DNA of 19,222 nt from a virus (taxonomy: Duplodnaviria; Heunggongvirae; Uroviricota; Caudoviricetes): the IMG/VR virus record IMGVR_UViG_2526164693_000012. The stretch is one strand, 5' to 3'. How positions within the stretch are numbered: position 1 is the stretch's first letter; each line of letters begins with the position of its first letter. A model generated the notes under the pieces. The model saw only the letters and a list, made by a program, of their open reading frames with translations. It ran no database searches and was not told the DNA's origin. The translations under genes and the position numbers were made by a program. Below are positions 222 through 580 of this stretch, in pieces.

Positions 222-249
222 TTGCGGGAAAAGGAGAGTTAAGTAGAAT
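222..249 (+). promoter_or_regulatory. Putative sigma70 promoter for the mok/hok transcript (TTGCGG, 16 nt spacer, TAGAAT)
   Basis: Hexamers read directly at 222-227 and 244-249; would give a leader of about 170 nt before hok, typical of hok mRNAs. Confidence 0.3.
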
Positions 250-367
250 TGCTGCGGGTGCTTGAGGCTATCTGCCTCGGGCATGAACACCAACGGCAGA
301 TAGAGAAAAGCCCCAGTTAACATTACGCGTCCGGCAAGACGCTTAACATTAATCTGAGGCTCAATCC

Positions 368-580
368 ATGCTGAACACATGTAGGTTAGCCTCTTACGTG
401 CCGAAAGGCAAGGAGAAGCAGGCTATGAAGCAGCAAAAGGCGATGTTAATCGCCCTGATCGTCATCTGTTTAACCGTCATAGTGACGGCACTGGTAACGA
501 GGAAAGACCTCTGCGAGGTGCGAATCCGAACCGGTCAGACGGAGGTCGCTGTCTTCGTAGACTACGAATCTGAGAAGTAA
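368..580 (+). CDS. mok: mok-like reading frame: in-frame 19-codon N-terminal extension of hok (70 codons total)
   Basis: ATG at 368 is in frame with hok; the extension MLNTCRLASYVPKGKEKQA resembles the N-terminus of chromosomal Mok proteins as I recall them (MLNTCR...). Confidence 0.4.
   Translation: MLNTCRLASYVPKGKEKQAMKQQKAMLIALIVICLTVIVTALVTRKDLCEVRIRTGQTEVAVFVDYESEK
425..580 (+). CDS. hok: Hok/Gef family type I toxin (HokD/RelF-like), 51 aa
   Basis: Translation MKQQKAMLIALIVICLTVIVTALVTRKDLCEVRIRTGQTEVAVFVDYESEK has a single TM segment and the Hok signature TRKDLCEVRIR...EVAVF; strong SD AAGGAG 9 nt upstream of the ATG at 425. Confidence 0.85.
   Translation: MKQQKAMLIALIVICLTVIVTALVTRKDLCEVRIRTGQTEVAVFVDYESEK

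Follow-up and report, generated by a model that had tools for sequence, protein, structure and literature searches.

The DNA analysed here, a stretch of 19,222 nucleotides referred to as the window, is in our estimate (probability about 0.88) part of a 933W/Sp5-type Stx2a prophage of Escherichia coli O157:H7 that carries two hok-family type I toxin–antitoxin modules: hokW/mokW/sokW at locus 1 and, at locus 2, a diverged module with the same RNA switch and without a canonical mok start. Positions 44-19184 showed 100% identity to Stx2a phages, and in EDL933 the chromosomal context adjoins rutG. Locus 1 (222..about 654) is a complete mok/hok/sok module and is base for base the annotated mokW/hokW/sokW of phage 933W (AF125520), with 100% identity over the 446 bases compared (window 215..660). 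Given zero differences from the 933W/Sakai prophage Sp5 locus, the window represents another copy of the same phage and the mokW, hokW and sokW coordinates transfer directly to it. Locus 1 was annotated in 1999 and its function was shown in 2021; nothing about it is new, and the missing mok at locus 2 is the sole mildly new point. The original prediction, made from the letters alone, had recognised locus 1 as a real regulatory RNA locus, which makes it a positive control; its interpretation was essentially right for a feature that was already known.

Locus 1 carries every canonical element of a hok mRNA. The sense-strand elements are the following.

222..249, plus strand: hokW mRNA promoter, read directly (-35 TTGCGG at 222-227, 16-nt spacer, -10 TAGAAT at 244-249)
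256..654, plus strand: predicted full-length hokW mRNA of about 395-400 nt (the RF01794 match begins at 256; the MFE fold pairs 256-267 with 631-642)
256..267, plus strand: tac (translational activator), GGGUGCUUGAGG, pairing with fbi in the full-length fold and with ucb in the truncated fold and the Rfam consensus; supported by inverted repeats
268..303, plus strand: inner hairpin of the tac stem (9-bp repeat 268-276/295-303; paired positions in the RF01794 consensus)
308..314, plus strand: ucb or anti-Shine-Dalgarno box AAGCCCC, whose partner in the folds is the mok Shine-Dalgarno region when the RNA is full-length and tac when it is truncated
355..361, plus strand: dcb box with the mok Shine-Dalgarno GAGG (356-359), followed after 8 nt by ATG 368; sequestered by ucb in the full-length fold
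368..580, plus strand: mokW, 70 codons, in frame with hokW (open reading frame list; annotated mokW in AF125520)
371..377, plus strand: loop CUGAACA of the Sok-target hairpin in the truncated-RNA fold; it contains CUGA and fits YUNR
425..580, plus strand: hokW, 51 aa (Pfam HOK_GEF, 81.1 bits; annotated hokW in AF125520)
563..566, plus strand: TACG at Tyr47, by sequence match a candidate site for the A-to-I editing by TadA known for hok genes, which would recode Tyr to Cys
589..608, plus strand: 3′ stem-loop seen in the folds, the putative end and protection of the processed (truncated) mRNA
631..642, plus strand: fbi (fold-back inhibition), CUCAACGCACCC, pairing with tac in the MFE fold

The definitions of ucb and of dcb, the mok Shine-Dalgarno box, follow plasmid R1 (PMC9841398), with GCCUC as the 3′ arm of the target hairpin; in R1 the equivalent 3′ stem is needed for the stability of Tr-hok (PMC9841398). 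The TadA motif in hok genes is described in bioRxiv 10.1101/2025.08.07.668861. The promoter proposed at 222..249 is present as two hexamers at a spacing of 16 nt and is not listed by a strict consensus scan. G256 lies 7 nt downstream of the -10 hexamer, and the spacing from the promoter to GGGTGCTTGAGG is as in K-12 hokC (TATAAT-6 nt-G) and in intact hokA. With its transcription start (256) and its 3′ end (near 650) placed by homology only, the predicted mRNA resembles R1-type mRNA in length in the same fold analysis. The inverted repeat previously noted at 268..276 and 295..303 is perfect (CTATCTGCC and GGCAGATAG) and is the core of a longer repeat, 257-276/295-314. The mok-like start at 368 opens a 70-aa reading frame that runs in frame through hok (425..580), as had been suggested; it has its own Shine-Dalgarno sequence, starts in the Sok-target hairpin and overlaps hok. 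Where the original prediction ended the locus at 580, the range proved too short for a locus that is itself real, since the module runs on to about 654 with the 3′ stem-loop and fbi.

RF01794 matched locus 1 over the full model (model positions 1-157) with 113.5 bits (gathering threshold 59), and HokW matched Pfam HOK_GEF (PF01848) with 81.1 bits (cut-off 22). The Rfam family, although named ‘sok’, is a model of the hok leader in sense orientation, and its matches therefore mark hok mRNA and not Sok. MFE folds, which are unreliable in detail for RNAs of 350-400 nt, together with inverted repeats predict that the mRNA ends pair through tac and fbi and that tac can alternatively pair with ucb; an 8-nt perfect inverted repeat (254-261/637-644) lies at the tac and fbi ends. 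The truncated locus-1 RNA flips among alternative folds, depending on the position of the cut.

Contrary to the original prediction, which found no convincing Sok promoter in either locus, a cis-antisense Sok with its promoter is present at locus 1.

306..376, minus strand: SokW antisense RNA, 71 nt (annotated in AF125520; homologous to K-12 sokC; seen on northern blots for identical Sp5 sequence)
383..411, minus strand: sokW promoter (-35 TTGCCT at 411..406, 17-nt spacer, -10 TAACCT at 388..383; the -10 box was set by published mutagenesis)

SokW is identified by identity with the annotated sokW, by a mutagenesis-defined -10 box and by an RNA detected on northern blots. It is predicted to fold into a 14-nt single-stranded 5′ tail, complementary to 363-376, and a long hairpin (dG -29.9, z -4.95). 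The promoter was missed in the original prediction because it matches the sigma-70 consensus poorly, at 7-8 of 12 positions. Scanned strictly for sigma-70 promoters and terminators, both loci likewise yielded no promoter; we rejected this blank result as proof of promoter absence because the experimentally defined sokW promoter fails the same scan. Sok promoters are poor in sigma-70 consensus and are missed by strict scans.

Experiments on the identical sequence of Sp5 have been published (Takada et al. 2021, PMC8621323). HokW was toxic and was neutralised by sokW expressed from its own promoter (PMC8621323). Changing the -10 box on the Sok strand from TAACCT to GAGCCG abolished the antitoxin activity of sokW, and primers YO-421/422 change 382-388 from TAGGTTA to CCGGCTC, which are exactly those sokW -10 bases (PMC8621323). 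Northern blots detected hokW and sokW RNAs as well as smaller hokW RNAs, which the authors left unassigned; after addition of mitomycin C sokW vanished and HokW appeared, and the locus was reported to help lyse the host and free the Stx2 phage progeny (PMC8621323). For the identical sequence, toxicity, antitoxicity, the Sok -10 box and both transcripts are hence established in the literature.

Homology and folding point to tac/fbi/ucb switching and 3′ processing at locus 1, and from these we propose how the module may work. The weak promoter would give rise to a hokW mRNA of about 400 nt, in which the 5′ tac pairs with the 3′ fbi and the mok Shine-Dalgarno is closed by ucb. Because of these two pairings the full-length mRNA would be translationally inert. 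Trimming of the 3′ end to the 589-608 stem-loop would let tac switch to ucb and free the mok translation start, which would then sit in a hairpin with the Sok target as its loop. As ribosomes move through mok, they would unmask the start of hok and allow synthesis of the small inner-membrane toxin HokW. SokW, an unstable RNA transcribed from TTGCCT-17-TAACCT within the mok/hok leader, would pair through its 14-nt 5′ tail with the target loop and cover the mok Shine-Dalgarno and AUG; in this way it would block translation of mok and therefore that of hok too, with RNase III probably contributing to decay of the SokW/hokW mRNA duplex. Loss of SokW, for example upon prophage induction, would lead to synthesis of HokW.

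The elements of locus 1 and their order are the same as in hok/mok/sok of plasmid R1, the type I paradigm (RF01794, PF01848): promoter, tac, ucb, mok Shine-Dalgarno/dcb, target hairpin, hok, 3′ stem-loop, fbi and, on the opposite strand, a Sok whose promoter lies within the mok/hok leader. R1 Hok and HokW are 45% identical. The SokW hairpin is 16 nt longer than that of R1 due to an insertion at 327-342, and hokW occupies a prophage context with a proposed role in phage release, whereas the R1 system serves plasmid maintenance. As in K-12 mokC, mokW is in frame with hokW, while R1 mok, as R1-type sequence reads, occupies a different frame from hok. K-12 HokC(Gef) and HokD(RelF) share 80% and 92% identity, respectively, with HokW, the mokW product and MokC have the N-terminus MLNTCR in common, and the complement of 306..376 aligns with K-12 sokC at its 5′ end and terminator. 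IS186 flanks hokC in K-12, and K-12 hokD is a leaderless, shortened locus downstream of relBE, whereas the hokW copy in the window is intact.

At locus 2 the following elements were assigned.

13536..13564, minus strand: predicted hok2 mRNA promoter (-35 TTGCCC at 13564..13559, 17-nt spacer, -10 TAAATT at 13541..13536); family conservation begins here
13175..13529, minus strand: predicted full-length hok2 mRNA, 355 nt from tac to fbi (RF01794 match from 13529; folds; 90.7% of pairs kept in 50 relatives)
13519..13529, minus strand: hok2 tac, GGGUGCCUUUC, whose partner in the folds is fbi when the RNA is full-length and ucb when it is truncated
13471..13481, minus strand: hok2 ucb, GGAAAGGCCCC, from folds and family pairing; part of the counterpart of leader block 1
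13445..13449, minus strand: GAGGC box, by alignments homologous to the mok Shine-Dalgarno/dcb, with no start codon downstream
13409..13483, minus strand: 24-codon upstream open reading frame (GUG 13483 to UAG 13411-13409), a speculative candidate for a substitute leader frame
13240..13380, minus strand: hok2, 46 aa (RefSeq WP_000078907.1, Hok/Gef family; Pfam HOK_GEF), downstream of lom
13209..13230, minus strand: hok2 3′ stem-loop from the fold, 99.8% paired in the family with compensatory changes between AU and GC/CG
13175..13192, minus strand: hok2 fbi (UCAGCCGA...GGCACCC) from the fold; family homology stops right after GGCACCC
13386..13415, plus strand: predicted Sok2 promoter (-35 TTGACT at 13386-13391, 18-nt spacer, -10 TAACCT at 13410-13415), inside the counterpart of leader block 2
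13423..13486, plus strand: Sok2, a predicted antisense RNA of 64 nt (range about 60-65 nt)

Locus 2, the second hok copy of the original prediction, is not a second mok/hok. The hok2 peptide does belong to the family (33.2 bits to PF01848, cut-off 22), but the canonical position for starting mok has no start codon: neither ATG, GTG nor TTG occurs between GAGGC (13449-13445) and the hok2 ATG, and the sole upstream reading frame of hok2 ends 28 nt before this ATG. An in-frame mok was rejected on account of a TAA in-frame stop 15 nt upstream of the hok2 ATG. The closest K-12-type paralogue of the hok2 peptide is HokA, from the intact hokA of E. coli ATCC 25922 (46% identical, AAFLxCK in both, both cysteines hard-coded). 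The hokA leader is canonical, with 120 bits to RF01794 and GAGG-7 nt-ATG opening an in-frame mokA, whereas the locus-2 family reaches 35.6-53.5 bits (five relatives, 35.8-53.5 bits) and lacks a start codon after the GAGG box. Locus 2 itself scored 35.6 bits, below the gathering threshold of 59, in a full-model match with E = 3e-6 in 801 nt.

Two leader blocks had been reported to recur between the loci. Block 1, AGCCCCAGTTAACATTACG, is present, although at 309..327 and not 309..329, a small slip in coordinates; it comprises the ucb/anti-Shine-Dalgarno box (GCCCC) and the 5′ arm of the hairpin that forms the Sok terminator on the other strand. Block 2, GTAGGTTAGCCTCT, was confirmed at 381..394. 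Its opposite strand holds the -10 box of Sok, TAACCT, the sokW promoter lying inside the block, and its GCCUC is the 3′ arm of the hairpin targeted by Sok. The counterparts at locus 2 occupy the complement of 13476..13457 and 13420..13401, as described. The idea that this likeness is due to chance or low complexity, and that only the peptides are related, draws on the best local match between the leaders, which is weak, being short (19 nt) and reached by 27 of 2000 shuffles. In a global alignment, however, the similarity clearly exceeded shuffled controls, as the original prediction had expected (z = 6.4; 0 of 2000 dinucleotide shuffles reached the score), the covariance model matches locus 2 over its full length, and the same elements occur in the same order with 5′-3′ end pairing in both loci. 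A chance origin is thus rejected as next to inconceivable.

Folding of the leaders, which had been put forward as a check, gave the same alternative folds in both loci, and compensatory changes were found in relatives of locus 2. These relatives were gathered with an alignment of homologues of the 46-aa peptide; members of the family occur in lambdoid phages, including the 933W/Sp5 type, and in P2-like phages, with E. coli, Shigella, Salmonella and Citrobacter as hosts. In 50 distinct relatives conservation coincides exactly with the module, starting at the promoter and ending at fbi (limits at about 13540 and 13181), and these limits are sharp in different phage contexts. The predicted pairs are kept at 90.7% and 89.6% in the two folds, compared with 33-50% when partners are slid, with double changes at 16 and 7 pairs, respectively. 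The core tac-fbi and tac-ucb helices are paired at 98.6% and 98.7% across the 50 relatives and, being invariant, carry no covariation evidence of their own; the extension helix and other locus-2 helices do show double changes. The view that both loci give real, regulated hok mRNAs stands for locus 1 through its identity with the tested hokW/sokW, and for locus 2 sequence comparison suggests such regulation.

The homologous TTGACT-18-TAACCT of locus 2 is the predicted Sok2 promoter, which again is not listed by the strict scan. Its -10 box is the same hexamer at the same homologous position as the validated sokW -10 and is invariant in the family, and AGGTTAGCGCCT within this promoter is invariant or nearly so in the 50 relatives. 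The predicted Sok2 folds into a 14-nt single-stranded tail and a 16-bp hairpin (dG -31.3, z -6.4), resembling SokB, SokC and SokW, and its tail is complementary to the loop of the locus-2 target hairpin; its 3′ end is uncertain because the U-tract is poor (CCUUUCC). Our literature search returned nothing specific on the second hok of 933W or on Sok2, neither Sok2 expression data nor an experiment with the hok2 peptide.

With no mok and a score under the Rfam gathering threshold, locus 2 might be a relic that is no longer translated, a decaying, non-functional hok remnant in which the mok start was lost, hok2 cannot be translated and the RNA similarity is merely inherited. The GAGG box with no start codon after it would fit such decay, as would the low RF01794 score, the several K-12 hok loci known from the literature to be inactivated and the occurrence of damaged relatives (a degenerate tac and ucb in L068, a leader deletion in L016, a replaced 5′ part in L033). 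However, the peptide appears to be under purifying selection, with a mean pN/pS of 0.27 over 47 intact 46-codon coding sequences, several helices show compensatory base-pair changes, and the module boundaries are sharply kept across different phage contexts. Furthermore, the mok-less state is common to the whole family in E. coli, Shigella, Salmonella and Citrobacter and is therefore old and stable and not a recent lesion. We consider a remnant improbable.

We tentatively suggest that hok/sok may occur in nature without mok, in the form of the 46-aa hok family found next to lom, which keeps the whole tac/ucb/fbi switch and a Sok, with Hok translation controlled either by a switch between GAGGC/GCCUC and a hairpin at the Shine-Dalgarno sequence or by a relocated short leader reading frame upstream of ucb. 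In the likely mechanism for locus 2, the GAGGC box and the GCCUC arm would form a structural switch in which the hok2 Shine-Dalgarno is either freed or closed by the local hairpin AGCGC-CUCU/GGAG-GCGCU. Binding of Sok2 to +44..+107 would favour the closed form and decay, and the 24-codon upstream reading frame may help to open the hok2 Shine-Dalgarno. If the 46-aa family is indeed such a variant, mok-coupled translation would not be obligatory for the family. Locus 2, below the Rfam threshold and without mok, offers a handy natural system in which to ask if hok can do without mok coupling.

A related explanation goes further and lets the relocated frame replace mok. Translation would start at a conserved AUG/GUG doublet (GUG 13483) just upstream of ucb, pass through the Sok-target region and stop at UAG 13411-13409 in the hairpin that closes the Shine-Dalgarno; coupling would unmask the hok2 Shine-Dalgarno and Sok2 would cover the start. 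Such a frame, opening at the doublet and running to at least -36, is kept in 26 of 28 distinct family leaders, where dinucleotide shuffles predict 12.6, a control that overstates significance because the relatives share ancestry; they amount to roughly 12 independent lineages, 10 of them positive. Which frame is open varies from lineage to lineage, a pattern expected where the act of translation counts and not the peptide made, and in 18 of 50 relatives an upstream frame of 42-79 codons runs across the hok start in the +2 frame, like R1 mok. GAUGUGG is nearly invariant despite its internal-loop position in the open fold, and the predicted Sok2 is complementary to the doublet; yet the doublet also lies under the 3′ tail of Sok2, which could explain its conservation. 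Likewise, the putative Shine-Dalgarno GAAGG, 4-6 nt upstream, lies within a covarying stem, so that its conservation is already explained by structure, and in some apparently intact relatives the frame ends at -57 or -69. Because the enrichment is confounded by shared ancestry and overlapping RNA-structure constraints, we keep the 24-codon frame as a mok substitute only as a rival explanation, and a rather doubtful one.

As for the 18 overlapping frames, some relatives open theirs with a TTG near -46 and the others with the doublet.

The tails of the two antisense RNAs differ in their predicted targets. SokW pairs with its cognate target at -23.5 kcal/mol compared with -9.0 kcal/mol for the non-cognate one, and the corresponding values for Sok2 are -22.6 and -14.0 kcal/mol. 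Locus 2 would also be a second, apparently orthogonal toxin module, which should be considered when phenotypes of hokW deletions in Stx phages are interpreted.

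The original prediction, that two leader blocks common to both hok loci mark real, regulated hok mRNAs, was confirmed as an observation and supported in its interpretation; what it describes is ordinary and was known before. Both blocks are present in locus 1 (hokW/mokW/sokW, near the window start) and in the second hok module, locus 2 (hok2), block 1 spanning 309..327 rather than the proposed 309..329. The two leaders resemble each other beyond chance: compared with shuffled controls, their global alignment gave z = 6.4, and none of 2000 dinucleotide shuffles scored as high. 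The best local match between them is weak by itself (matched by 27 of 2000 shuffles).

Window 215..660 showed 100% identity to phage 933W (AF125520), and the same locus-1 sequence also occurs in VT2-Sakai/Sp5. The promoter hexamers, the inverted repeat, which is a perfect match, and the mok-like start in frame with hok (70-aa ORF) were found where they had been proposed. RNA elements are named according to the R1 definitions summarised in PMC9841398.

Features of locus 1
222-227 and 244-249, plus strand: promoter, TTGCGG and TAGAAT
256-267, plus strand: tac
268-303, plus strand: inner hairpin, i.e. the 9-bp inverted repeat 268-276/295-303
306..376, minus strand: SokW antisense RNA, 71 nt (AF125520 annotation)
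308-314, plus strand: ucb (anti-SD box), AAGCCCC
315-353, plus strand: hairpin whose complement forms the Sok terminator
356-359, plus strand: mok SD, GAGG
368..580, plus strand: mokW (AF125520 annotation), AUG at 368
371-377, plus strand: target-hairpin loop, CUGAACA
383-393, plus strand: 3' arm of the target hairpin, AGGUUAGCCUC
411..406 and 388..383, minus strand: sokW promoter by homology, -35 TTGCCT, 17-nt spacer, -10 TAACCT, +1 at G376
410-415, plus strand: hok SD, AAGGAG
425..580, plus strand: hokW (AF125520 annotation)
589-608, plus strand: 3' stem-loop
631-642, plus strand: fbi, CUCAACGCACCC

The annotated K-12 genes sokC, sokB and sokE align to the leaders on the opposite strand. A Sok promoter, which the original prediction could not place convincingly, sits at locus 1 partly in block 2 (GTAGGTTAGCCTCT), which holds the Sok -10 box. 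Its placement is experimentally backed by a published mutant: the 'promoter-less' primers YO-421/422 change window 382-388 from TAGGTTA to CCGGCTC, and this mutant gave no protection (PMC8621323). Read on the Sok strand, the change is TAACCT to GAGCCG. A strict consensus promoter scan listed none at locus 1 or locus 2; the Sok promoters were missed because they agree with the consensus at no more than 7-8 of 12 positions.

In Sp5, HokW is toxic and is neutralised by sokW expressed from its own promoter, with a partial contribution of RNase III and Hfq, and Northern blots show both hokW and sokW RNAs. After mitomycin C treatment sokW RNA is lost and HokW builds up in the inner membrane; phage yield is halved without the hokW locus (Takada et al., PMC8621323). 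HokW shares 92% identity with HokD/RelF and 80% with HokC/Gef, and scored 81.1 bits against Pfam HOK_GEF. Its Tyr47 codon TAC is followed by G, giving TACG (563..566). This is the TadA A-to-I editing motif, which is reported to change Tyr to Cys in hokB/C/D/E and to increase toxicity (bioRxiv 10.1101/2025.08.07.668861). In Hok2, both cysteines (C27, C44) are hard-coded.

Folding of both leaders predicted tac/fbi closed and tac/ucb open forms at both loci. The MFE fold of 256..642-654 has the helices tac-fbi and ucb-mok SD (closed form), as in an R1-type mRNA folded likewise. Locus-1 RNA cut after the 3' stem-loop took up one of two folds, depending on the cut point: a 5' metastable hairpin, or the open form with tac-ucb and GAGGC-GCCUC pairing. 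An independent repeat finder returned 257-276/295-314, 254-261/637-644 and 386-397/577-588. Judging from homology and prediction, hokW mRNA would pass through the same tac/fbi/ucb switching steps. The SokW fold consists of a long hairpin and a single-stranded tail of 14 nt (dG -29.9, z -4.95), the tail being complementary to the target loop and mok AUG. A 16-nt insertion in hokW (327..342, GCGTCCGGCAAGACGC), itself a small hairpin, is absent from the Rfam consensus, hokC, hokA and R1. It lengthens the Sok terminator stem, hence the 71 nt of SokW versus 57-60 nt for K-12 Sok RNAs.

The shared leader architecture is the family-defining feature modelled by Rfam RF01794. Several counts of O157:H7 hok genes, whose enrichment in prophages is established, have been made (13 in EDL933, PMC1635323; up to 18 per chromosome in a recent Hok survey). 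Locus 1 is thus already known in every respect. Although named 'sok antitoxin', RF01794 is modelled in the sense direction, from the hok mRNA 5' end to the hok AUG; matches therefore mark the hok strand, and the real Sok is a shorter opposite-strand transcript. Locus 1 scored 113.5 bits (256..430) against a gathering score of 59, whereas locus 2 matched the whole model at 13529..13367 with 35.6 bits (E = 3e-6 in 801 nt), and five of its relatives reached 35.8-53.5 bits, all under the gathering threshold.

Features of locus 2
13564..13559 and 13541..13536, minus strand: predicted hok2 promoter, -35 TTGCCC and -10 TAAATT, where family similarity begins
13386-13391 and 13410-13415, plus strand: predicted Sok2 promoter, TTGACT, 18-nt spacer, TAACCT, at a position homologous to the sokW promoter
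13380..13240, minus strand: hok2, 46 aa (RefSeq 'Hok/Gef family')

As a Hok/Gef gene, locus 2 has already been catalogued. Window 13165..13565 matches 933W 45475..45875, downstream of lom, without a difference. In the 1999 933W record the hok2 ORF carries no gene annotation; in newer records it appears as 'MokW-like host killing' or as 'small toxic polypeptide'. The peptide is closest to HokA (46% identity) and scored 33.2 bits against HOK_GEF (cut-off 22). No description of the RNA anatomy, predicted Sok or missing mok of locus 2 was found in the literature searched, and the recent Hok survey expressly leaves out Mok and Sok annotation.

We collected 87 related loci and aligned 50 distinct mRNA-length sequences. 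The majority fraction rises from ~0.6 to >0.9 at 13540 and drops after 13181, and family similarity does not extend past GGCACCC at 13175. A mean pN/pS of 0.27 shows purifying selection on the peptide. The locus-2 folds are predicted to follow the same logic as those of locus 1. In the 355-nt hok2 RNA, tac (GGGUGCC..UCGGCUGA) is paired with fbi (UCAGCCGA..GGCACCC); when cut after the stem-loop at 13230-13209, tac is paired with ucb (GGAAAGGCCCC) and GAGGC (13449-13445) with GCCUC (13407-13403). Across the alignment, 90.7% of cells are paired in the closed structure (33-49% with slid partners; double changes in 16 pairs) and 89.6% in the open one (38-50%; 7 pairs). No variation is seen in the tac-fbi and tac-ucb cores, which therefore give no covariation information; compensatory changes are clear in the 3' stem-loop and in the long-range leader/3'-UTR helix. 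Some relatives are damaged: in L033 (IMGVR_UViG_2529293141_000015) promoter and tac are swapped for unrelated sequence with fbi retained, L016 (Salmonella diarizonae) has lost 15 nt of its leader, and in L068 tac, ucb and the GAGG box are degenerate. Near-identical copies of this enterobacterial phage locus on short contigs labelled Xanthomonas pisi, Planococcaceae MAG and Vagococcus sp. (L010, L011, L013) most likely stem from contaminated assemblies.

The stretch AGGTTAGCGCCT is invariant or almost so across the 50 relatives. Predicted Sok2, starting at G13423, would be ~64 nt long (dG -31.3, z -6.4), fold like SokB, SokC and SokW, and have a 5' tail complementary to the target-hairpin loop CUUAAGCAA; no expression data for it were found in the literature searched. 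Sok tails pair far better with cognate than with non-cognate targets (-23.5 versus -9.0 and -22.6 versus -14.0 kcal/mol), so the two modules should be orthogonal. The longest cross-complementarity between the two Sok/target pairs is 6-7 nt.

The absence of mok is the single non-canonical trait of locus 2. Between GAGGC and the hok2 ATG there is no ATG, GTG or TTG, and 15 nt before this ATG the reading frame is closed by a TAA. The intact hokA locus, in contrast, is canonical (120 bits with RF01794), with GAGG-7 nt-ATG opening an in-frame mokA. We give roughly one chance in three to locus 2 being a natural mok-less hok/sok variant, which would be of modest interest. Hok2 could possibly be translated by way of a direct structural switch or of a relocated leader ORF. 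With a switch, the freed arm AGCGC..CUCU of the closed fold would pair with GGAG..GCGCU and cover the hok2 SD; these SD-covering helices are 99.6% and 71.5% paired in the alignment, one pair having 10 double changes. In the open fold, GAGGC would hold GCCUC and leave the SD largely free, and Sok2, once bound to +44..+107, would set the arm free and thereby close the SD. A relocated ORF would instead run from an almost invariant AUG/GUG doublet (GUG 13483) to UAG 13411-13409. An ORF from the doublet to at least -36 is found in 26 of 28 distinct leaders (12.6 expected from shuffles), its frame differing between lineages. Of the 50 relatives, 18 have an upstream ORF, beginning at the doublet or at a TTG at ~-46, that crosses the hok start. 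As this enrichment is confounded by common ancestry and overlapping structural constraints, the leader ORF is only suggestive as a mok substitute.

Over window 44..19184 the identity with 933W-type Stx2a phages of E. coli O157:H7 is 100%, and in EDL933 this DNA is found in the prophage adjoining rutG. Positions 1..43 and 19185..19222 lie outside the 100% alignments to 933W-type phages and E. coli genomes. Annotated neighbours include tail-fibre genes and the following.

700..1044, plus strand: YgiW/YdeI-family gene
1595..10015, minus strand: 2806-aa ORF filling 8.4 kb (RefSeq 'LPD38 domain-containing protein')
13613..14347, minus strand: lom (Ail/Lom outer-membrane protein)

A strong intrinsic terminator (13571..13589, minus strand) ends lom, and the predicted hok2 promoter begins a few bases past its T-run; hok2 therefore has the look of an independent cassette that was inserted behind lom. 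The gene directly downstream of hokW belongs to the NirD/YgiW/YdeI stress-tolerance family (OB-fold, secreted) and resembles lysogenic-conversion-type cargo beside a toxin module.
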